Source: Pseudomonadota bacterium
GTDB taxonomy: Bacteria > Pseudomonadota > Alphaproteobacteria > Micavibrionales > UBA2020
DNA: 41,799 nt
NCBI GenBank assembly: GCA_016195185.1
Contig: JACQAA010000013.1
Coordinates: 1 to 41,799 of the forward strand
Reading direction: 5' to 3'
This document shows, piece by piece, positions 19,573 to 26,800 of the stretch. Positions within the stretch are counted from its first letter, which is position 1. Each line of letters opens with the position of its first letter. The position numbers were made by a program, and so were the translations under genes. The notes under the pieces were generated by a model, which was not told where the DNA came from, did no database searches, and saw only the letters and a list, made by a program, of their open reading frames with translations.

Positions 19573-20439
19573 ATGAAGTTCGCCGAATCAGGATTGCCGA
19601 ATAACAAGCTGGTTGAAGACGCCTTCAACTACAGCCATGCGAACGTGATGAGCTATCGTGACGAAGTCATGAAGGATTTTACCCAGCAGATCAACCAGTC
19701 GCATGCTGCGCAGCTCAGACAACTGGATGCTGACAAAGTTGCGGGTACTTTGTCACCGGATGATTACAAGAAAGAAAAAGAGGCGCTGGATAAAATGCGC
19801 GATGAACAAATGAAAATGGGTCCACGGATCGTTGATAGGGAGTTGGATAACAATTTTAATCAGCGCCGCCTGGGTCCGGCCCAAGAGCTTGTCAATAACG
19901 GGGAGAAGGCCTCGCCGGAATTGCTGGCCGCTGTCATTCTGAATGAATGCGTTCGGTCTCCCCTTGACTATCTGAAACTGGCTAAAAAATTTGGCGACAA
20001 GGTTGCCGATGTTATAGCTCAAATGCAGCATATTGACGTTTATCCGGGCGAACGTGACGCCAATCTTGCTGCAGCGAACAGCGACGTGAAACGTGCTTAT
20101 ATGGCGCAGCTGATCACGAATCTGGGCGACATCATGTCGCAGGTCAAATTGATGGCAAAGGTCAGCCCGGGACAGAAGGTCATGTTTGCAGACGGGCAGG
20201 AAGAGGCGCTGTTTGGCAACGCCAAATCGGTCTGGGGTAATGATAAAAAACTTGATCAGAGATTTGTAGCGGTTTTTAATAGCGCGGCAGAAGCGACGAC
20301 TTCTCCCTTCAGAATGGAAGTCGACGAAAAGAACAATTTGGAATTGATCAAGAGCAATTTGAACCCGCCGACTGGCCCCAAAGTTACCCCTCCCAAAGGT
20401 CCCGGCGACAAGCACGGTCTGGGAGATGATGTGTTTTAA
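19573..20439 (+). CDS. Hypothetical protein resembling a degenerate RelA/SpoT-type HD domain
   Basis: Strong GGAGG RBS and downstream terminator. ELLAAVILNECV...LAKKFGDKVADVI follows the IAAALLHDVVED...IEEKFGxEVAxLV pattern with HD replaced by NE. The CDS is secure; the fold call is by eye. Confidence 0.75.
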   Translation: MKFAESGLPNNKLVEDAFNYSHANVMSYRDEVMKDFTQQINQSHAAQLRQLDADKVAGTLSPDDYKKEKEALDKMRDEQMKMGPRIVDRELDNNFNQRRLGPAQELVNNGEKASPELLAAVILNECVRSPLDYLKLAKKFGDKVADVIAQMQHIDVYPGERDANLAAANSDVKRAYMAQLITNLGDIMSQVKLMAKVSPGQKVMFADGQEEALFGNAKSVWGNDKKLDQRFVAVFNSAAEATTSPFRMEVDEKNNLELIKSNLNPPTGPKVTPPKGPGDKHGLGDDVF

Positions 20440-20459
20440 GTAAGACTAATAGACCGAGT

Positions 20460-20495
20460 GAAAACGCGCCTCTTCAAGAGGGCGCGTTTTTCTTT
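20460..20495. terminator. Bidirectional intrinsic terminator
   Basis: AAAACGCGCCTCTT-C-AAGAGGGCGCGTTTTTCTTT between convergent genes, with T/A tracts on both sides. Confidence 0.85.
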
Positions 20496-20503
20496 AGTGG
20501 CAC

Positions 20504-21448
20504 TTAATGTCCTGCCTTCTCCCCCGCCGGGTTTTCCACTGTTTTTAGTGCATCAGCCAGTCTGTGTTGGGCAGTACCGGGCCTTAATGGCTTTGGCTGG
20601 CTCATGTGTGGTGCCCAGCCAATGGCATAAACGACTTGAAATGTTGCCGGTATTTTTCCGTCTGCATCGGCAAATTTTTCCTGATACAGCCGAGTTGCTT
20701 CTAAAATGACTTGTCGTCGTGTTGGTTGTAGCAACCGGTTATAAGTGGCATTGCTGGCTCCCATTCCACGTAAATCCTGCATCAGCTTTAATAGACTCGA
20801 GTAATGCACGGTGATAGTATCACTGTCGATCACGGGCAGGGCAAAGCCGGCGCGCTGCATCAGGGCTCCCATATCGCGGGGGTCGATGAAAGGCGATACG
20901 CGGGGGCTCGCTCCCCCACTTACCGCCATTTCTGCTTCCATCAGGCATTGGCGTAGCTCACGCAGACTTTCCCCACCCAGCAGTGCTGCCAGAAACAGGC
21001 CGTCCGGTTTCAGTGCTTGCTTGATCTGCACCAACGCGCCAGGCAGGTCGTTGACCCAATGCAGGGTTAAGTTGCTTATCACAGCATCCAGGCTGCAAGA
21101 GCGGAAGGGTAAAAATTCCTCATCGGCCACAACGGCGGGGGTTGTCGTCTGGCGCGTCATGTCAAAGGAAGTATCCATGCAGATGACATGTTCCGTTCCT
21201 ATACGTTGTTGCAGACGCTCTGCAAGGCCACCATAAGCGCCGCCCAAGTCCACTATCAGAGGAAAGTTCCTTTTCACCACATCGAGTCGTTCGATCAGCC
21301 GTTCGGCCACTTCGGTCAACAAGAAATCAAACTGGCGGATATTTTGTGCCGCGCGATCACGCCGGCGGCGCAGCAGACGCCGGTCAAAGACAGCGGGGGG
21401 TCGGTTGTGCTGATTATTCATGCCTATCAACGTCACTTTTTGGGGCAT
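20504..21448 (-). CDS. Class I SAM-dependent methyltransferase, BioC/NDUFAF5-like (usual comF neighbour)
   Basis: VFDRRLLRRRRDRAA, ADEEFLPF, LHWVNDLPG, LKPDGLF, SPRVSPF, LQRAGF-like motif; start could be ATG 21421. Confidence 0.9.
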   Translation of the reverse strand: MPQKVTLIGMNNQHNRPPAVFDRRLLRRRRDRAAQNIRQFDFLLTEVAERLIERLDVVKRNFPLIVDLGGAYGGLAERLQQRIGTEHVICMDTSFDMTRQTTTPAVVADEEFLPFRSCSLDAVISNLTLHWVNDLPGALVQIKQALKPDGLFLAALLGGESLRELRQCLMEAEMAVSGGASPRVSPFIDPRDMGALMQRAGFALPVIDSDTITVHYSSLLKLMQDLRGMGASNATYNRLLQPTRRQVILEATRLYQEKFADADGKIPATFQVVYAIGWAPHMSQPKPLRPGTAQHRLADALKTVENPAGEKAGH

Positions 21449-21450
21449 CT

Positions 21451-24102
21451 CTAATGTCGCCCCTTAGGCTTGTCGCTTGGTGGCGTTGGTTCCAGCTTGT
21501 TATGCCTGGTTGGAAAGAGACTCTTGGAGATGGCGTTAATATTCCGATCGATTTTCTCTATGCCGGGGTTTTCTTTAACGTGCAGCTTGGTCTGAGCATA
21601 GCTGAGGCTGAGTTTTTTTCCGCTTGCCGCCGCTGCCGCGCTTTCGGGTGTATTGTGTGTCGGCTCTGGTTCTTTCCTGGTTTCGTCCCCTGCCATGCCG
21701 CGCTGGCCCAGAATGCGTGACGGTATTGCGGAATAGCTGATATTTTTTACATCGACGGCTACTTTCTCGGTGGAGAGGGAGAATCCTTTATTTTTCTGGT
21801 GCTGCAGATCGCGTTGTGCAGCCAGGCCGTAGCCATCATTGGCCTGCATCTGTACCCGCGCCAGTAATTTGAGTGTATCGCGGGCTATGCGACCGACCCG
21901 GCAGTATTTATCCACTTTCTTCATCATCGTATATCTCATGACGCTGCCCGCGCTGGATTCGGGAGCCGAGACGACAGTGAAGGGATAGATCCGTTGCGGT
22001 GTAACGCCCACATGCGTGAAATAACTTTCACCAAGCTGGTTAACCTGTTCTGGGGATACCCCGAACTTGCTGGCAATAAAGGCTTTGGCGTCTTCGACCG
22101 TTCTAACATCTTTGGGCAGCACAAAACTGGGGGCATTGAGCATGGCCCCATCACCGCCGAGGCGGTTGGGCACGGGCATGATTTTTGGATCGAGTGCAAC
22201 CAGCAAATTGTTGTCCCAATCCCGGGTAATCGGCAGAATGACGGCAATGTTTTCTACCCCATCATCCGAAACAATGAACTCGATATCCTGCGCTGACAAG
22301 CCGCGAGTTGTTCGTCCTACTTTTCCTTCTTCGATAAACACGGCTTTAACCGGTTTTAAATGTAGTGATTCTGTTTTTTCTTCTTCAAATTCAGTACGTT
22401 CCGGCTCTTTCAGTAAATCATCTGGTTCATAGATTTTTTTAACTGCCTGACCCGGCAGCTTGGGCATGCTTTCCCCGATCCAGCGTGGCAGGGGGATATT
22501 ATAGCGTGTCATCAGATCAAAAACATACATCTCCAACCGCGGCTCGGGCAGGAGGCCGACCTGAGAGGCGAGGATAATATCAGCGCCGTCCAGTTCGGTG
22601 ATCATGCCCAGCTCGGTAAAAAGGGAACTTTTGTCCGTTGGCAGAGGCCATGAGGTTTTATAGGGGTTTTCCACCTCGATAAATACCGGTTCAATTGCTT
22701 CATCAATGCGGTCGGGTGAGGGGAAGTAGGTGTCTCCTATGTACCAGCTCCCCTCCGTTTTGGGGCGCAGGCCAATATTGTGGCGTACATACTCAAAAAT
22801 CATATGCCGGTTCCCTTCGGCATCCTCGGACATCTCTACTGTGTCCATGGCAATGGGTTCGATCAGGTGTCCTGACCACTTTTTACCATCCAAGTTGGAA
22901 CTGCCGCGTGTGACGGCGTTGACGATGGGGCGCGGGTAACCGCTGCGGACAAAAATAACTAAGCGGTTGTCCGGGGTAATCCGATAGGGAATGATGTCAC
23001 AGTGTTCCCCGGGGCGCTTGACCAGTTCGTGCAGGGCACCGCCTTTCTTATCGCGCACCACCATGATTTGCAATTCACCGACGGGGTTCTGCGACGGGCG
23101 TCTCTCTTCTAATACCAAACTTTGTTTGTCGGCTACTTTTTGCGAGACTATAAAATAGTTCGTAGCCGGATAGCTCATGGGTTTGTATTCTCCCGAATAA
23201 AGCTGGAAGCGGCCCTTGAAGCAATTTTTCACTACCCAGGGGTTCCAGTACGGAGCAGAAAAAGTCATTCTCATGCCGATCCGTGCGAATTCCCGACGGT
23301 AATCCTGATAGGTAAAGAACGTATATTCCTCGCGAATTTCTTGGTCCCAGTGAGCGCGGTAATTCTTGCGGTGAATAAATTCGATTGCCCATTTGTGTGG
23401 TAAGCGGAAGAGGCGCGTACCATCGCGCCGCGGCTTCAGTTCTTCAATAAAAAATCCTTCGCACCCGCCTGCCGGTAACGGGCGAGCTGACTGGGAGAAT
23501 AACAACAGCAGATCTGCCTCGGAAAGATGCGGGATCCCCATGCCTTCGCTGGGCGTGTCGGGCAGCTCCAGCAGTACGAATTCCCCTTCCGGTGGCATCA
23601 TGTAGTCACGGATCAGCATGGTACCGCCGGGTTTCAGCTTGTGAATCTGTTTCTCCAGGAGGAGGCTCACGTCTATCTGGTTGTAGCCGGCGGCTGAATA
23701 AATTCCGTGCAGGATATTGGAATTGATAATTGCGTCCAGCGATTCATCTTCAAGTTCGGGTATCGAAATATCTGACAGGCGGAAGGACAGGTTCGGCAGC
23801 TTGTAATTTTTGCGGGCAAATTCAATGGCGGCGGGATCGTGGTCAACGCCGATCAGCTCGGCACGCGGATTGAGCTGGGCCAGAACATAGGTTATTTCTC
23901 CCGTTTCGCACCCCATATCGACAATGCGGGAGCCAGAGGGCAGCAGGAGGTGGGCAGAGATCAGGGCCGCTTTTTGCTGGATAAATTCCGGTAGCTCAAT
24001 CACGGCCTTTTGGCGTGACCCCTCATCCTTTGCCCGGGAGGAAAAGTTTTTGATGCTAGCGGCGATTTGCTCATTAATCTCTGTTTTGTCGATCTTTGAC
24101 AC
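21451..24102 (-). CDS. 883-aa multidomain protein: class I methyltransferase domain plus two NUDIX-like domains
   Basis: N-terminal IVDMGCETG, LIGVD, DAIINSNILH, LKPGGTMLIRD. Two repeats resemble NudF-type strands (GDTYFPSPDRIDEAIEPVF; LGESYFTHVGVTPQRIYPF). Confidence 0.8.
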   Translation of the reverse strand: MSKIDKTEINEQIAASIKNFSSRAKDEGSRQKAVIELPEFIQQKAALISAHLLLPSGSRIVDMGCETGEITYVLAQLNPRAELIGVDHDPAAIEFARKNYKLPNLSFRLSDISIPELEDESLDAIINSNILHGIYSAAGYNQIDVSLLLEKQIHKLKPGGTMLIRDYMMPPEGEFVLLELPDTPSEGMGIPHLSEADLLLLFSQSARPLPAGGCEGFFIEELKPRRDGTRLFRLPHKWAIEFIHRKNYRAHWDQEIREEYTFFTYQDYRREFARIGMRMTFSAPYWNPWVVKNCFKGRFQLYSGEYKPMSYPATNYFIVSQKVADKQSLVLEERRPSQNPVGELQIMVVRDKKGGALHELVKRPGEHCDIIPYRITPDNRLVIFVRSGYPRPIVNAVTRGSSNLDGKKWSGHLIEPIAMDTVEMSEDAEGNRHMIFEYVRHNIGLRPKTEGSWYIGDTYFPSPDRIDEAIEPVFIEVENPYKTSWPLPTDKSSLFTELGMITELDGADIILASQVGLLPEPRLEMYVFDLMTRYNIPLPRWIGESMPKLPGQAVKKIYEPDDLLKEPERTEFEEEKTESLHLKPVKAVFIEEGKVGRTTRGLSAQDIEFIVSDDGVENIAVILPITRDWDNNLLVALDPKIMPVPNRLGGDGAMLNAPSFVLPKDVRTVEDAKAFIASKFGVSPEQVNQLGESYFTHVGVTPQRIYPFTVVSAPESSAGSVMRYTMMKKVDKYCRVGRIARDTLKLLARVQMQANDGYGLAAQRDLQHQKNKGFSLSTEKVAVDVKNISYSAIPSRILGQRGMAGDETRKEPEPTHNTPESAAAAASGKKLSLSYAQTKLHVKENPGIEKIDRNINAISKSLFPTRHNKLEPTPPSDKPKGRH

Positions 24103-24204
24103 GATACGAACCTTCTTAACAATGCCCCTTGTATATTATATTAATACGGAAAACAATAGATTTTTTTGTTGATATGTAAAGCATCTTCGGGCACCTTGTC
24201 CAGT

Positions 24205-24963
24205 ATGCCATCGGCAATAAAAAAGAAGAATAGATTTTCTGACCTGTGGGAGGCCACCATTAACGCGCTGTTGCCACCGCGCTGTGTGGCGACCGGAGAG
24301 ATTGTGGATGCGCAGGGGATGGTAAGCCCCGTTTTCTGGGCGCAACTGCAGTTTATCGAGGATCCGTTTTGCAAGACCTGTGGCAGCCCTTTCAGTTTTA
24401 ATCTTCCGACTGGTGCACTTTGTGCCGCCTGCATGGAGCAGGAACCGTTGTTTGACCAGTCACGCTCCGCTGTTACCTACAACGAGGCCAGCCGGAAACT
24501 GGTGCTGGCTTTCAAGTACGGCGATAGACTGCATACGGTTCACACCTTCGTGCCGTGGATGATCCGTGCCGGACAGGAGTTGATCGGGCAGGCGGATTGC
24601 ATTATCCCCGTGCCGCTGCATGCGCGGCGGCTGCGGGAGCGGCGTTTCAACCAGTCAGCTCTGCTGGCGCAGGCAATTGCCACAAGAACGGGAAAAGATT
24701 ATCTTCCCGATACCCTGTTACGCATCCGCCATACCACCCCGCAAAATGGCCTCAGCGCCAAAGACCGCGACCGGAATGTGCGGGGTGCTTTTGTGGTCAA
24801 GAAGTGCAGTCATGCCACCGTTCGTGATAAGAATCTCCTATTGATTGACGATGTGTTTACGACTGGTGCCACGCTCAACGAATGTGCACGGATTCTCAAA
24901 TCAGCCGGGGCTGAGACAGTCAACGTCCTGACAATTGCTCGGGTGGCAAAAGAAGAGTTTTGA
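24205..24963 (+). CDS. comF: ComF family protein (double zinc ribbon + phosphoribosyltransferase)
   Basis: LPPRC, CKTC, CAAC, PVPLH..R..ERRFNQS, LLIDDVFTTGATL; start uncertain (24166 or 24205). Confidence 0.92.
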   Translation: MPSAIKKKNRFSDLWEATINALLPPRCVATGEIVDAQGMVSPVFWAQLQFIEDPFCKTCGSPFSFNLPTGALCAACMEQEPLFDQSRSAVTYNEASRKLVLAFKYGDRLHTVHTFVPWMIRAGQELIGQADCIIPVPLHARRLRERRFNQSALLAQAIATRTGKDYLPDTLLRIRHTTPQNGLSAKDRDRNVRGAFVVKKCSHATVRDKNLLLIDDVFTTGATLNECARILKSAGAETVNVLTIARVAKEEF

Positions 24964-25038
24964 TGCGGATTAGCCGGAATCTGAAACTGATTGATGCCTA
25001 TATTATCAACATATTTTCCCTATATAGGCGTATTTAGG

Positions 25039-25824
25039 TCATGTTCCGCCGCCGTAGCTCTGAACGAGCGACCCGGCGATCAGGTGCCAGCCGTCAACCA
25101 GCACAAAAAAGATGATCTTGAAGGGCAGGGAGATCATCACCGGTGGCAGCATCATCATCCCCATCGACATCAGGATGGAGGAGGTCACCATATCAATAAT
25201 GAGAAATGGTAAAAAGATCAGGAAGCCAATTTCGAACGCACGGCGCAGTTCCGAAATCATGAAGGAGGGGATAACTACCTGCATCGGTGTTGCCATGGCG
25301 TCCTCCAGTTTCGGTGTCTTGCTCAGATTCATAAACATCGCCAGATCTTTCTCCCGCGTGTGCTTGAGCATAAACTGCTTAAATGGCATAGCTGCTTTTT
25401 GCATTCCCTCCATTTCATCCATTTCCCCGCTCATGACAGGTTGGACGCCTTGTTCGTAAGCGGTGTGCAGGGTGGGTGACATGATAAAAAATGTTAGAAA
25501 TAACGCCAGGCTCAACAAGACGGTATTGGGGGGCGTTTGTTGTGTCCCCAGCGCGGTGCGCAGGAAGGACAGCACCACGACTATCCGTGTAAAAGAAGTC
25601 ATCATCATCAGGATGGATGGCGCCAGCGAGAGGACCGTCATTAACACCACCATCTGGATAACGCGGCCGGCAACTGAAGTGCCGCCAGCACCATCTGCAG
25701 CACCGGCTTTGTCACCGCCCAGATCGAGCGTCAGGCTTTGTGCCCAGACGTGGCCGGGAATGAACAGTAACCCAGCCACCAAGAGCAACCCGGCAATCAG
25801 TGTGAAGAGCTTAAGCCTGGACAT
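25039..25824 (-). CDS. fliP: Flagellar export pore protein FliP
   Basis: LAPSILMMMTSFTRI, QQTPPN, SMGMMMLPP, FVLVDGW. Confidence 0.98.
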   Translation of the reverse strand: MSRLKLFTLIAGLLLVAGLLFIPGHVWAQSLTLDLGGDKAGAADGAGGTSVAGRVIQMVVLMTVLSLAPSILMMMTSFTRIVVVLSFLRTALGTQQTPPNTVLLSLALFLTFFIMSPTLHTAYEQGVQPVMSGEMDEMEGMQKAAMPFKQFMLKHTREKDLAMFMNLSKTPKLEDAMATPMQVVIPSFMISELRRAFEIGFLIFLPFLIIDMVTSSILMSMGMMMLPPVMISLPFKIIFFVLVDGWHLIAGSLVQSYGGGT

Positions 25825-26125
25825 TTTTCTGATCCTTCAAAAATCCGACAACATTGTCACTCCCTGCCGGAATGTTGCTTTCCACCACGGTCTCCCCCTG
25901 CGGCCCCAGTACCAAAAGATGTTCCTGGTCGTCGCGCTTGATCAGGACCAGGCGGCGACGGTGGTCAAGGGGCAGGAATTCAATCACCTTCAGCCGTCGC
26001 TTGCCGGTGGCGGGTGTCAGGGCGCCTGAAAGTCCGATTCTTTTCATGACCAATGAGAGCAGTAGCATCAGGATAATAACAAAAGCAAATGCGCTAAAGA
26101 ATTTAAGAAGCAACATAGTATCCAT
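25811..26125 (-). CDS. fliO: Flagellar biosynthesis protein FliO
   Basis: One N-terminal TM helix, RRLKVIEFLPLDHRRRLVLIKRDDQEHLLVLG; directly upstream of fliP. Confidence 0.9.
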   Translation of the reverse strand: MDTMLLLKFFSAFAFVIILMLLLSLVMKRIGLSGALTPATGKRRLKVIEFLPLDHRRRLVLIKRDDQEHLLVLGPQGETVVESNIPAGSDNVVGFLKDQKNVQA

Positions 26126-26128
26126 AGG

Positions 26129-26410
26129 CTATCTCACCCCCGGTGTGTTAAAAGCATCCTGTTGTTGCTTCATGGTGCGAGCAAGGGTCTCGAGAGATTC
26201 AATCAGATGGCTCATTTGTTTTTCCAAGGCGCGGCCGTCATTTTTTGGCAGTTTGGCGACGGCATCGCACACTTTCATCACGTTTTTGTCCAGGCCTTGC
26301 AAGTCCATGATTTCGCCCCTGGTCACCCGTGCTTGACAATCACGGACGTAGTCGACAATGCCTTTTATTTTTTTTTCGACTGTCGTCGTGTCAAGATTAC
26401 TTTCTGTCAT
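26129..26410 (-). CDS. Small helical hypothetical protein in the fliOP operon
   Basis: 93 aa, tightly packed between the FlhB-C-like gene and fliO; amphipathic helical pattern (GEIMDLQGLD). Confidence 0.7.
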   Translation of the reverse strand: MTESNLDTTTVEKKIKGIVDYVRDCQARVTRGEIMDLQGLDKNVMKVCDAVAKLPKNDGRALEKQMSHLIESLETLARTMKQQQDAFNTPGVR

Positions 26411-26765
26411 TGTCCTGTGTTCTGCCAGTATCGGGGTTTGTCTCTTTCATAGATTGATACGTTCCGTTCTCTTTGTAAACATAGGCCAGAATTTCCGCAA
26501 TGGCGACCAAGGCTTCGGAGGGAATATCACTATCCAGTTCGATCGCGGCGAGCATTTGGGCAAGGTCTTTGTCCTCTCGGACGTTAACGCCATTATCGAA
26601 AGCCAGTTGGAGGATTTCTTCAGCCAGTTTACCGTAGCCGGCGGCTACGACCTTGGGGATGGAGCTTTCGTCGAGCCCAAACTTCTTGAGGGCCACGGCG
26701 GCACGCCGCCGTGGATCGGGGTCTTTTTCAGGGCCTGTGGGCCCATTGTCCAGAATATCAACCAT
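26397..26765 (-). CDS. Stand-alone FlhB C-terminal-domain protein (EscU/YscU/HrcU switch family, FlhX-like)
   Basis: AVALK...PKVVAAGYGKLAEEILQLAFDNGVNVRED..LA..L....IP.EALVAIAEILAYVY parallels the post-NPTH part of FlhB at 30844-31920. Confidence 0.88.
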   Translation of the reverse strand: MVDILDNGPTGPEKDPDPRRRAAVALKKFGLDESSIPKVVAAGYGKLAEEILQLAFDNGVNVREDKDLAQMLAAIELDSDIPSEALVAIAEILAYVYKENGTYQSMKETNPDTGRTQDNDRK

Positions 26766-26800
26766 GTATTCCCTAGTATTTAGAAACAAGTGTAGCAAAA

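Follow-up and report, generated by a model that had tools for sequence, protein, structure and literature searches.

A class I methyltransferase fused to two tandem Nudix-fold modules that lack the Nudix box: a conserved, uncharacterized bacterial protein family

Introduction

The NudF/NudK-type nucleoside-diphosphate-sugar pyrophosphatases (the ADP-sugar pyrophosphatase NudF of E. coli, YffH/NudK, human NUDT5 and the ADPRase of M. tuberculosis) work as homodimers. ADP-ribose is the effector of the regulator NrtR, as the name of an NCBIfam model also reflects. According to the account in PMC2330246, NrtR proteins carry a Nudix-like effector domain in place of a hydrolase. A different arrangement is found in EvaA, a dTDP-sugar 2,3-dehydratase. 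As outlined in PMC8987622, a single EvaA chain has two Nudix folds in tandem, neither with the box; pocket A is active and pocket B a remnant, and the enzyme requires two glutamates of its first pocket, E139 and the E190 that lies 51 residues further on.

Here we analyze a gene from a bacterium of the Micavibrionales (Alphaproteobacteria; assembly GCA_016195185.1). The window is the whole stretch of DNA analyzed, the 41,799 nucleotides of contig JACQAA010000013.1. Like EvaA and other NDP-hexose 2,3-dehydratases (4J7G/4J7H), the encoded protein is a single chain in which two box-less Nudix folds follow each other as a pseudo-dimer. Unlike EvaA, it carries a fused methyltransferase, and whereas EvaA belongs to gene clusters for deoxysugars and antibiotics, the gene studied here lies between comF and a gene for a BioC-like methyltransferase. 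The fold of each module is that of the NudF/NudK-type pyrophosphatases, from which the protein differs in lacking the Nudix box and in fusing two folds to a methyltransferase; the tandem fusion would mimic their homodimer. NrtR matches PF00293 whereas the two modules do not, and it lacks the combination of two Nudix folds with a methyltransferase. The generic class I small-molecule methyltransferases (Methyltransf_11/25/31; 3MGG, RebM, CmoA, phosphoethanolamine N-methyltransferases) share the N-terminal fold and its residues D62, G64, G68, D87 and D111, but not the glutamate at the central glycine of motif I, the large lid with an invariant Glu241, the attached tandem Nudix module of ~430 residues or the disordered tail.

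Results and Discussion

The gene (21451..24102, minus strand) comprises 883 codons and a TAG stop (21451-21453), as read from the list of open reading frames and the translation, and its GTG start is supported by homologs that align with the 883-residue product from residue 1 onward. The open reading frame is genuine and its family is large: 217 close homologs match over the full length at 41-77% identity, 173 species genomes contain the family, and clustering at 50% identity gives at least 413 protein clusters that match the C-terminal region. The product is a conserved, uncharacterized bacterial protein of a kind publicly annotated only as ‘SAM-dependent methyltransferase’, and neither Pfam nor NCBIfam has a model that extends over residues 323-756. 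The original prediction knew of no characterized protein with this architecture. For the whole methyltransferase plus tandem Nudix chain this agrees with our literature searches, which found no description, but the C-terminal half does have a precedent in EvaA.

In most of the 150 representatives listed, the tandem region follows an N-terminal region of methyltransferase size, and Pfam found methyltransferase models in 12 of 28 hand-picked representatives. Short matches with an apparently standalone tandem region, 13 of which were inspected, all begin inside the methyltransferase or inside module 1, which suggests that they are truncated gene calls. Extra domains in other family members are an APH-type or Zeta-type kinase or, as in the relative P0198, an additional canonical NUDIX domain.

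At its N-terminus the protein has a SAM-dependent methyltransferase domain of class I (residues ~36-322; 23137..23997, minus strand) with an inserted lid at ~175-322, as defined with Pfam and Foldseek. Five Pfam methyltransferase models scored above their own cutoffs, among them Methyltransf_31 over residues 56-168 (E 1.3e-16) along with related models, and no NCBIfam equivalog reached its cutoff. A Foldseek search with the full model returned class I methyltransferases only, aligned over about 290-350 columns. These structural neighbors are mostly small-molecule enzymes (RebM, CmoA, MitM, phosphoethanolamine and arsenite methyltransferases), with the tRNA methyltransferase METTL6 also ranking high.

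Motif I of this domain reads I-V-D-M-G-C-E-T-G in the translation (residues 60-68; 23899..23925, minus strand), with Glu66 (codon GAA, 23905-23907) in place of the central glycine, just as the original prediction had read it in an 883-residue frame. The substitution did not prove to be a family signature when its conservation was checked in homologs. Among 63 close relatives, position 66 is E in 28, G in 25, D in 5, A in 2 and S, N or R in one each, and among 103 diverse, more distant relatives its six commonest residues are G (65), D (9), A (8), R (6), E (3) and N (2). Judged from these alignments, the glutamate is lineage-specific and alternates with the canonical glycine. D62, G64, G68 and D87 are all retained in 60 of the 63 close relatives and D111 is conserved beside them, so the copy studied here is probably an active methyltransferase and not a pseudoenzyme, although Glu66 could impair SAM binding in this very copy. 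Of the three catalytic signatures first described as altered, the two Nudix boxes are indeed missing, as described below, and motif I is altered at its central glycine, with the other SAM-site residues kept.

The lid contains the most conserved residue of the protein. Its helix region at residues 230-250 (23353..23415, minus strand; R-L-F-R-L-P-H-K-W-A-I-E-F-I-H-R-K...), delimited by conservation, bears Glu241, which is invariant in all 103 diverse members and lies outside the set of SAM-site residues; A239 (98/103), F242 (99/103) and R245 (89/103) are conserved nearby. Nine matches to the pattern ‘RE.xEE’ in close homologs fall at about residues 253-260, also in the lid and outside the Nudix modules. 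Of the 103 diverse relatives, 27 lack one or more of the SAM-site signature positions, several of these being fully degenerate, and Glu241 is retained even there. Because Glu241 persists where the SAM site has decayed, methyl transfer may not be the core function of the family.

These patterns bear on whether the protein turns over any substrate at all. A ligand sensor or scaffold devoid of catalysis, with no turnover by any of the three modules, would fit the glutamate in motif I, the decay of the SAM site in the 27 diverse relatives, the loss of the box from both Nudix modules and the position of the most conserved residue outside the SAM site. We nevertheless consider a pseudoenzyme very unlikely, given that 60 of the 63 members of the window’s clade keep all four SAM-site positions, that 25 of the 63 have the canonical Gly66 and that Pfam and NCBIfam detected no fused output domain (DNA-binding, kinase or cyclase) in the protein.

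The C-terminal half contains two modules, both confidently modeled as NudF/NudK-type Nudix folds. Module 1 (residues ~328-545; 22468..23121, minus strand; AF2 pLDDT about 90) and module 2 (residues ~572-755; 21838..22389, minus strand), the latter delimited also by conservation and hhalign, are joined by a linker at residues 546-571 (22390..22467, minus strand) assigned from secondary structure and lower conservation. The model of the tandem region reached a pLDDT of 88.4 and a pTM of 0.89. In structure comparisons, made with predicted models of pLDDT 82-88, residues 339-540 matched a NudF-type cluster of the Atlas (TM 0.71/0.66) and residues 568-753 a GDP-mannose pyrophosphatase-type cluster (TM 0.81/0.72). 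The best PDB match to residues 323-756 was EvaA (4j7g_A; E 4.2e-10, TMq 0.54, TMt 0.53), which covered both domains in 489 aligned columns at an identity of 10-11% and an rmsd of 7.8 Å. It was followed by single-domain matches (TMt 0.58-0.69) to the GDP-mannose hydrolase YffH, ADP-ribose pyrophosphatases and NUDT5, and a viral structure library likewise gave single-domain matches, nearly all to annotated Nudix proteins.

An internal duplication of the modules is supported by profile comparison. BLASTP gave nothing convincing, and hhalign with a narrow alignment fell short of significance (probability 0.7%, E 0.08). With the 103 diverse members, hhalign aligned the modules collinearly over 155 columns at a probability of 73-78% and an E of 4e-6 to 2e-5. 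The original prediction had proposed two internally similar NUDIX-like modules lacking the box, and quoted four strings from them that are present at residues 358-385, 607-637, 456-474 and 690-708; all of this stood.

The absence of the box extends through the family. The Nudix box GX5EX7REUXEEXGU and three relaxed patterns had no match in the protein, and the full pattern had none in 120 close family sequences or in 148 representatives. PF00293 did not match the protein at E up to 1, the 72 tandem fragments compared with Pfam gave no match to a NUDIX or sugar-dehydratase model even at E up to 10, and a profile search of PDB sequences found no Nudix chain. In module 1 the box-equivalent stretch (residues 411-445; 22768..22872, minus strand) has a secondary structure of strand, loop, a helix at 428-443 and G444-L445, and E-Y-V-R-H-N replaces REUXEE. 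The columns of this helix are variable across the family, and the metal-binding REUXEE positions are non-acidic. The E. coli NudF box (97-119) was placed on the same stretch by hhalign, in a collinear but insignificant alignment.

Other residues of module 1 have been kept. The loop P-S-P-D-R-I-D-E (residues 461-468; 22699..22722, minus strand), picked out by its conservation (P461 80/103, P463 92/103, E468 82/103), is the counterpart of S-P-G-G-T-S-E in NudF, whose SPG (133-135) and E139 aligned with it in hhalign (E about 0.1, not significant). Conserved polar residues of the module are R391, N395, D405, G411, H/Y412, E415, E468, R522 and E524. R391, G411, E415, P463 and E524 are held in at least 85% of the 103 diverse members, where D405 is kept in 84, N395 in 74, H/Y412 in 98, E415 in 92 and E468 in 82. 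In module 2, by contrast, the positions at 85% or more in the same members are structural (F589, P624, P643, P658, L662, P663, G691, P702 and P707), and N618 is kept in 85 of 103. Conservation is thus asymmetric, with polar residues in module 1 and mainly structural ones in module 2, an arrangement that mirrors the functional pocket A and remnant pocket B of EvaA as outlined in PMC8987622.

The acidic residues of module 1 (D405, E415, D467/E468 and E524) could support catalysis and not mere binding. One form of catalysis would be hydrolysis, in which these non-canonical residues cleave a pyrophosphate or related bond, making the protein a bifunctional methyltransferase/hydrolase acting on an ADP-ribose- or NAD-related nucleotide. 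Their conservation, the collinearity of the P-S-P-x-x-x-D-E loop with that of NudF and an NrtR- and NAD-kinase-like gene context in one lineage (see below) are consistent with this. We doubt it strongly, as the REUXEE metal positions are variable and non-acidic, there is no box anywhere in the tandem region, the alignment with NudF is not significant and the canonical NUDIX domain of P0198 would be redundant were the tandem module hydrolytic.

Another form would be that of EvaA. A bifunctional NDP-sugar-modifying enzyme, with a non-hydrolytic module of the dehydratase/isomerase type working through the module 1 glutamates and a methyltransferase that methylates its product or substrate, is possible but on the unlikely side. 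In its favor, no other solved structure matches the two domains together as well as EvaA does, E415 and E468 are 53 residues apart where E139 and E190 of EvaA, as reported in PMC8987622, are 51 apart, RebM, a sugar O-methyltransferase, is among the methyltransferase neighbors and relatives carry kinase fusions. The two glutamate pairs, however, are compared by spacing only, the structural match to EvaA combines low identity with a high rmsd, and none of the 72 tandem fragments matched a sugar-dehydratase or NUDIX model. The gene context also argues against an NDP-sugar pathway: no deoxysugar-pathway genes (4,6-dehydratase, aminotransferase or glycosyltransferase) were seen in the window, and among four non-syntenic loci only L057 had a glycosyltransferase. 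EvaA is instructive in another respect, since its catalysis without a box means that box loss alone does not imply a sensor. The original prediction had inferred a ligand-gated methyltransferase or a nucleotide-binding pseudoenzyme scaffold; of this, binding of a nucleotide-linked ligand is still the best reading.

The protein ends in a variable C-terminal tail (residues 756-883; 21454..21837, minus strand), described at first as low-complexity and predicted here to be disordered, with pLDDT <50 over 759-791, 806-845 and 864-883. A short conserved motif lies near 776-800, where L776, K780, S795 and G799 are held in at least 90% of the 63 close relatives, and the tail is missing from relatives of ~740 residues.

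In the window the gene is surrounded by ribosomal, ABC-transporter, comF, methyltransferase and flagellar genes. Downstream on the same strand is a class I methyltransferase gene that is BioC-like (20504..21448, minus strand; TIGR02072 126 bits, below the cutoff of 185). The TAG stop, 2 nt and the ATG of this gene follow one another, the spacing originally noted, and the two genes are probably co-transcribed. Upstream and divergent is a comF/gntX-like gene (24166..24963, plus strand), with a double zinc ribbon (Pfam DZR_2) and a phosphoribosyltransferase domain (Pribosyltran) and with NCBIfam ComF/GntX matches below cutoff. In 78 loci, searched for the window’s own neighbor genes only, comF occurs in divergent orientation in 66 and the BioC-like gene occurs in 60; the latter is on the same strand and abutting in 52 of the 59 loci where both genes could be placed. 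The position between comF and the BioC-like gene is conserved in most of the 78 loci.

Such tight coupling to the BioC-like methyltransferase would suit an enzyme that methylates a macromolecule (protein or RNA), with the tandem Nudix region as a recognition module or scaffold, for instance for a nucleotide-capped RNA 5' end or for a partner such as the BioC-like protein. The presence of METTL6 among the structural neighbors and the conserved short motif in the disordered tail point the same way. There is little likelihood of this, however: most of the structural neighbors act on small molecules, the Nudix modules look like enzymes that act on NDP-sugars and ADP-ribose and not like decapping enzymes, Pfam and NCBIfam detected no RNA-binding domain in the protein and the ~740-residue relatives do without the tail.

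A different context was found in one distant lineage, in Bradyrhizobium lablabi (L061) and an Acetobacteraceae MAG (L065), where an NrtR-type regulator gene directly precedes the homolog. This separate gene encodes NUDIX and NrtR_WHD domains (NCBIfam ‘ADPR responsive repressor’, 220 bits, below the cutoff of 400), the winged-helix NrtR_WHD giving no Pfam match in the fusion protein itself, and the pair adjoins a weakly NAD-kinase-like gene. The two cassettes are 65-75% identical, so the link to NrtR amounts to about one independent observation. In the window’s own clade the NrtR-type neighbor is absent and the neighbors are comF and the BioC-like gene. A more far-reaching idea, which we consider quite unlikely, is that the methyltransferase and the double Nudix region form a composite active site around Glu241 and the module 1 pocket, converting a nucleotide derived from ADP-ribose or NAD by an as yet undescribed reaction other than hydrolysis (e.g., to a methylated ADP-ribose-type metabolite), under NrtR control in some lineages and with an activity that goes without methyl transfer in relatives whose SAM site has decayed.

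The reading we tentatively favor, at somewhat less than an even chance, is that an EvaA-like tandem of box-less Nudix folds acts as a non-hydrolytic holder of an NDP-linked ligand and is coupled to a SAM-dependent small-molecule methyltransferase. In this picture a small-molecule methyltransferase shares its chain with two NudF/NudK-type folds, which pair as an intramolecular pseudo-dimer and would no longer hydrolyze pyrophosphate. We infer that the tandem module would bind a nucleoside diphosphate-X, with an NDP-sugar or an ADP-ribose/NAD-derived nucleotide as candidates. Most of the binding would fall to the conserved module 1 pocket, and module 2, left over from the duplication, would be largely structural. 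The methyltransferase active site under the lid that bears Glu241 could then receive the ligand or one of its groups from the tandem module; alternatively, the tandem module may gate the methyltransferase allosterically.

Conclusion

There is at present no Pfam or NCBIfam model for about 430 conserved, confidently folded residues that occur across 173 species genomes and at least 413 protein clusters (50% identity). They would represent another use of paired Nudix folds without the box, an arrangement of which EvaA has so far been the solved example, and a family in which this fold is joined to a methyltransferase would widen the known box-less roles of the Nudix fold. Repeated decay of the SAM site alongside an invariant lid glutamate offers a natural series of variants for following how an enzyme fold changes. 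Should the link to NrtR hold, the family may also lead to a new step of NAD/ADP-ribose metabolism.

Predicted Fold of the C-Terminal Region

Residues 323–756 of the 883-aa protein (P0001), which follow its methyltransferase (MTase) domain, were fitted by no Pfam model when searched together with 71 homologous fragments at E-values up to 10; only scattered chance matches were returned. Against PDB sequences, a profile of this tandem region brought up seven designed TPR proteins but not a single Nudix chain, and every match of a whole-family profile was either a methyltransferase or a spurious designed TPR protein. The C-terminal modules had been proposed to be NUDIX-like, and structure comparison of each module agreed with this. 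Module 1 (residues 339–540) matched NudF-type ADP-ribose pyrophosphatase clusters in the Atlas (TM 0.58–0.71 by query), and module 2 (568–753) matched clusters of GDP-mannose pyrophosphatase type (TM 0.70–0.81). A separate AlphaFold model of residues 323–756, built from 72 sequences (pLDDT 88.4, pTM 0.89), had as its best PDB match the dTDP-sugar 2,3-dehydratase EvaA (4j7g_A; E = 4.2e-10, TM 0.54/0.53, 489 columns, 10% identity). The next matches were to single domains, namely the E. coli GDP-mannose hydrolase YffH, ADP-ribose pyrophosphatases, human NUDT5 and M. tuberculosis ADPRase (target TM 0.58–0.69), and a viral structure library likewise gave single-domain matches, nearly all to annotated Nudix proteins.

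The four peptide strings that the original prediction had quoted as lead-ins and post-box strands were all located in the protein, at residues 358–385, 607–637, 456–474 and 690–708. Its description of the modules as internally similar holds for profiles from a diverse alignment (hhalign of module 1 against module 2, probability 73–78%, E = 4e-6 to 2e-5), but BLASTP of residues 301–560 against 561–780 gave nothing convincing and hhalign on a narrow alignment (0.7%) was not significant.

Loss of the Nudix Box and Asymmetry of the Modules

As had been stated from the sequence, neither module carries the GX5EX7REUXEEXGU box: P0001 matched neither the full pattern nor any of three relaxed ones, and scans of 120 close family sequences and of 148 representatives with the full pattern were empty too. 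Matches to RE.xEE, among the examples printed, fell only in the MTase lid or in the extra canonical NUDIX domain of one database representative (P0198). The helix at the box position of module 1 (residues 428–443, ending at G444-L445) has E-Y-V-R-H-N at the REUXEE site, and these columns are variable across the family. In E. coli NudF (from NC_000913) the box spans residues 97–119 and is followed by an S-P-G-G-T-S-E loop at 133–139. Alignments of NudF with each module profile in hhalign were collinear and not significant (E ~0.1); they placed the box onto residues ~412–445 of module 1 and 655–683 of module 2, and the S-P-G loop onto P-S-P-D-R-I-D-E (461–468) and H-V-G-V-T-P-Q (697–703). The consensus of the module 2 loop in the wide family is S-P-G-V-T-P-E. 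Compared with the Nudix superfamily, the protein has the fold but lacks both the box that defines it and a match to the family model. A non-canonical hydrolase, retaining the fold of the pyrophosphatases among its neighbors and acting through some other set of residues, seems improbable to us beside these empty scans.

Polar conservation was concentrated in module 1, where among 103 diverse members we found R391 in 91, N395 in 74, D405 in 84, G411 in 95, H/Y412 in 98, E415 in 92, E468 in 82, R522 in 82 and E524 in 98. The positions of module 2 conserved in at least 85% of the same members are Phe, Pro, Leu or Gly, and N618 occurs in 85 of the 103. According to a review (PMC8987622), the EvaA subunit has two Nudix-superfamily domains and two nucleotide-sugar pockets, pocket A being the active site, in which E139 and E190 are essential, and pocket B an inactive leftover of gene duplication. 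The concentration of polar conservation in one module of our protein resembles EvaA, where one pocket works and the other is a remnant. The separation of E415 and E468 (53 residues) is also close to that of E139 and E190 in EvaA (51), a suggestive likeness in spacing only. By analogy and from the model, the C-terminal half would work most like EvaA. A bifunctional protein, in which an EvaA-like enzyme is joined to the MTase, is a doubtful though serious alternative: the glutamate spacing is suggestive of it, whereas the protein lies outside the EvaA family both by sequence and by gene context.

The tail (residues 756–883; window 21454–21837, minus strand) is predicted to be disordered, is variable and is absent from relatives of ~740 aa. 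A short motif near residues 776–800 is conserved in close relatives, with L776, K780, S795 and G799 each at 90% or more.

The Methyltransferase Domain

Five class I MTase models of Pfam scored above their cutoffs over residues ~56–168, with no match past residue 170, and NCBIfam gave no equivalog at cutoff. All PDB matches of the full-length AlphaFold model (pLDDT 82.1, pTM 0.81) were class I MTases, and because these align over ~290–350 columns the domain, with a large lid, is taken to reach about residue 322. Motif I at residues 60–68 reads I-V-D-M-G-C-E-T-G, and a single transition would turn the codon of Glu66 (GAA) into one for Gly. The replacement of Gly by Glu that had been proposed as an altered signature is therefore present, but it does not mark the family, Gly being common among relatives at this position: 63 close relatives have E in 28, G in 25, D in 5, A in 2 and S, N and R in one each, and 103 diverse representatives have G in 65, D in 9, A in 8, R in 6 and E in 3. 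D62, G64, G68 and D87 are all present in 60 of the 63 close relatives, and D111 and N127-S128 are also conserved. Certain active MTases, catechol O-methyltransferase and FtsJ among them, likewise do without the central Gly of motif I. The N-terminal domain belongs to the class I MTases, although its motif I is atypical, and given the conserved SAM-site residues and these active precedents it is probably active.

Two observations count against activity. At least one of four signature positions of the SAM motifs is gone in 27 of the 103 diverse representatives (among them P0136, P0160, P0162, P0189, P0192, P0196, P0199 and P0211), several being fully degenerate. Outside the SAM site, lid residue Glu241 is the most conserved of the family, as it occurs in 103 of 103, and A239, F242, R245, R278 and K322 are each kept in 89–99 of them. 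Because a quarter of distant relatives have decayed SAM motifs while Glu241 is invariant, a fully non-catalytic sensor stays in consideration; set against the largely intact SAM site of the close relatives, we give that explanation little credence. The same combination keeps alive the idea of a composite active site, which might include Glu241.

Family Size and Domain Variants

A word-index search returned 217 homologues. Among the 120 matches listed, most were 820–990 aa long with 41–77% identity over the full length, the only name was "SAM-dependent methyltransferase", and the sources were Micavibrio-like and other alphaproteobacterial MAGs. Scanning one genome per species gave 173 relatives; the 78 loci retained from them include those of Micavibrio aeruginosavorus HCB189 and Bradyrhizobium lablabi. 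With residues 323–756 alone, an exhaustive profile search gave 413 clusters (50% identity) at E ≤ 1e-3 and 341 at E ≤ 1e-10. The tail-less form of ~740 aa is common (540 matches); the few of its 120 listed matches that have a taxon name belong to Alphaproteobacteria and Acidobacteria.

Variants were surveyed with Pfam in 28 representatives hand-picked by length class from 150 listed, of which 12 had an MTase match and 15 no match at all. Additional domains were found at the N-terminal side, a canonical NUDIX domain in P0198, an APH-type kinase domain in P0213 and a Zeta-toxin-type kinase domain, together with a degenerate MTase motif I, in P0190. No convincing case of a standalone tandem protein emerged. 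All 13 of the 15 Pfam-blank representatives that were inspected start in the last strand or lid of the MTase or in module 1, and since these starts fall inside domains we read the short sequences as truncated gene calls. A word-index search for a standalone tandem gave mostly fragments on short contigs, and the Atlas matches of the modules name a 387-aa Myxococcota cluster.

Genomic Setting and Conserved Neighborhood

The gene occupies positions 21451–24102 on the minus strand (883 codons), and its GTG start is supported by homologues that align from residue 1. Two bases separate its TAG stop from the ATG of a same-strand BioC-like class I MTase (20504–21448, minus strand), and a comF/gntX-like gene (24166–24963, plus strand; Pfam and NCBIfam) lies divergently upstream, an arrangement that bears out the original description of the locus. 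The BioC-like neighbor is probably not a true BioC, since it scores 126 bits against TIGR02072 (cutoff 185); PDB sequences gave it generic methyltransferases only. The phosphoribosyltransferase domain of the comF-like protein matches the PADLOC models PsyrT and ShosT, probably by generic domain similarity.

Further out, the window carries a ribosomal-protein/secY/adk/rpoA block, an ABC transporter, and genes for flagellar export and the flagellar rod. The region is ordinary chromosome, with an even G+C content over the length of the gene. A mobile element was rejected, tblastn finding no match to the protein in plasmid or phage collections, as was a riboswitch or leader (Rfam, 20300–25100, no relevant match); promoter- and terminator-like sites around the gene did not exceed shuffled expectation. 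For a defense system, PADLOC gave the protein only a generic methyltransferase match (mad2). Neither Pfam nor NCBIfam recognizes the 288-aa ORF (19573–20439, plus strand) that lies between the BioC-like gene and the ABC transporter. Two plus-strand ORFs between fliP and flgB (25854–26336 and 26358–26783) have no Pfam matches, and they are probably unannotated flagellar genes because similar ORFs adjoin fliP in related loci (5 and 8 cases, respectively).

Among the 78 homologous loci, a divergent comF-like gene lies upstream in 66 and a BioC-like MTase downstream in 60; several of the loci that lack one or the other stop at a contig edge. In all 59 loci where the target and the BioC-like gene could both be placed, they share a strand, and in 52 of these the BioC-like gene is projected to start no more than 60 nt from the target's stop. 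As the comF/target/BioC-like order persists down to ~35% identity, M. aeruginosavorus included, the gene and the BioC-like MTase look like a conserved operon.

Four loci (L057, L061, L064 and L065) are without the comF/BioC-like context. In two of them, from Bradyrhizobium lablabi (L061) and an Acetobacteraceae MAG (L065), the homologue comes directly after an NrtR-type regulator on the same strand, within ~20 nt. This regulator has NUDIX and NrtR_WHD domains and scores 220 bits, under the cutoff of 400, against the NCBIfam model "ADPR responsive transcriptional repressor". Divergent and upstream of the pair are a Band_7/SPFH gene and a weakly NAD-kinase-like gene (E = 5e-7 and 2e-7; protein of 312–317 aa). 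The two cassettes (L061:3133–5902 and L065:54–2883) are 65–75% identical and so amount to roughly one independent observation. The NrtR founding paper (PMC2330246) lists nrtX and nrtY, unnamed, among NrtR-regulated genes. An SNF2-family helicase downstream of the homologue in the Acetobacteraceae MAG (L065:6500–9001) matches the defense helicase models DpdE and ZorD; a defense link through it was rejected, the helicase not being conserved with the gene and none being seen in B. lablabi.

Proposed Function

The original prediction had offered a ligand-gated methyltransferase or a nucleotide-binding pseudoenzyme. Of this, a Nudix pair binding an NDP-linked ligand forms part of our best reading, but the MTase is read as probably active. 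On the structural models, we tentatively favor a small-molecule SAM-dependent MTase fused to an EvaA-like, non-hydrolytic pair of NudF/NudK type that holds an NDP-linked ligand. Pyrophosphate hydrolysis would have been lost from the pair, the ligand would be bound mainly in module 1, and it may be either the methyl acceptor or an allosteric effector of the MTase. We infer the class of ligand because the structural neighbors are NDP-sugar and ADP-ribose enzymes, one lineage is NrtR-linked and relatives carry kinase and NUDIX fusions. An MTase acting on a macromolecule, with the Nudix modules as its recognition element, would also account for the fusion, and next to these small-molecule associations we consider it unlikely.

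A literature search at the level of titles and abstract starts, with preprint supplements and subscription journals outside its range, found no paper on an MTase fused to tandem Nudix folds; the earlier remark that no characterized protein with this architecture was known is upheld for the whole fusion, but the C-terminal tandem has a precedent in EvaA. The significance of the protein lies in its large family, its 430 uncatalogued residues and a possible link to NAD/ADP-ribose metabolism.
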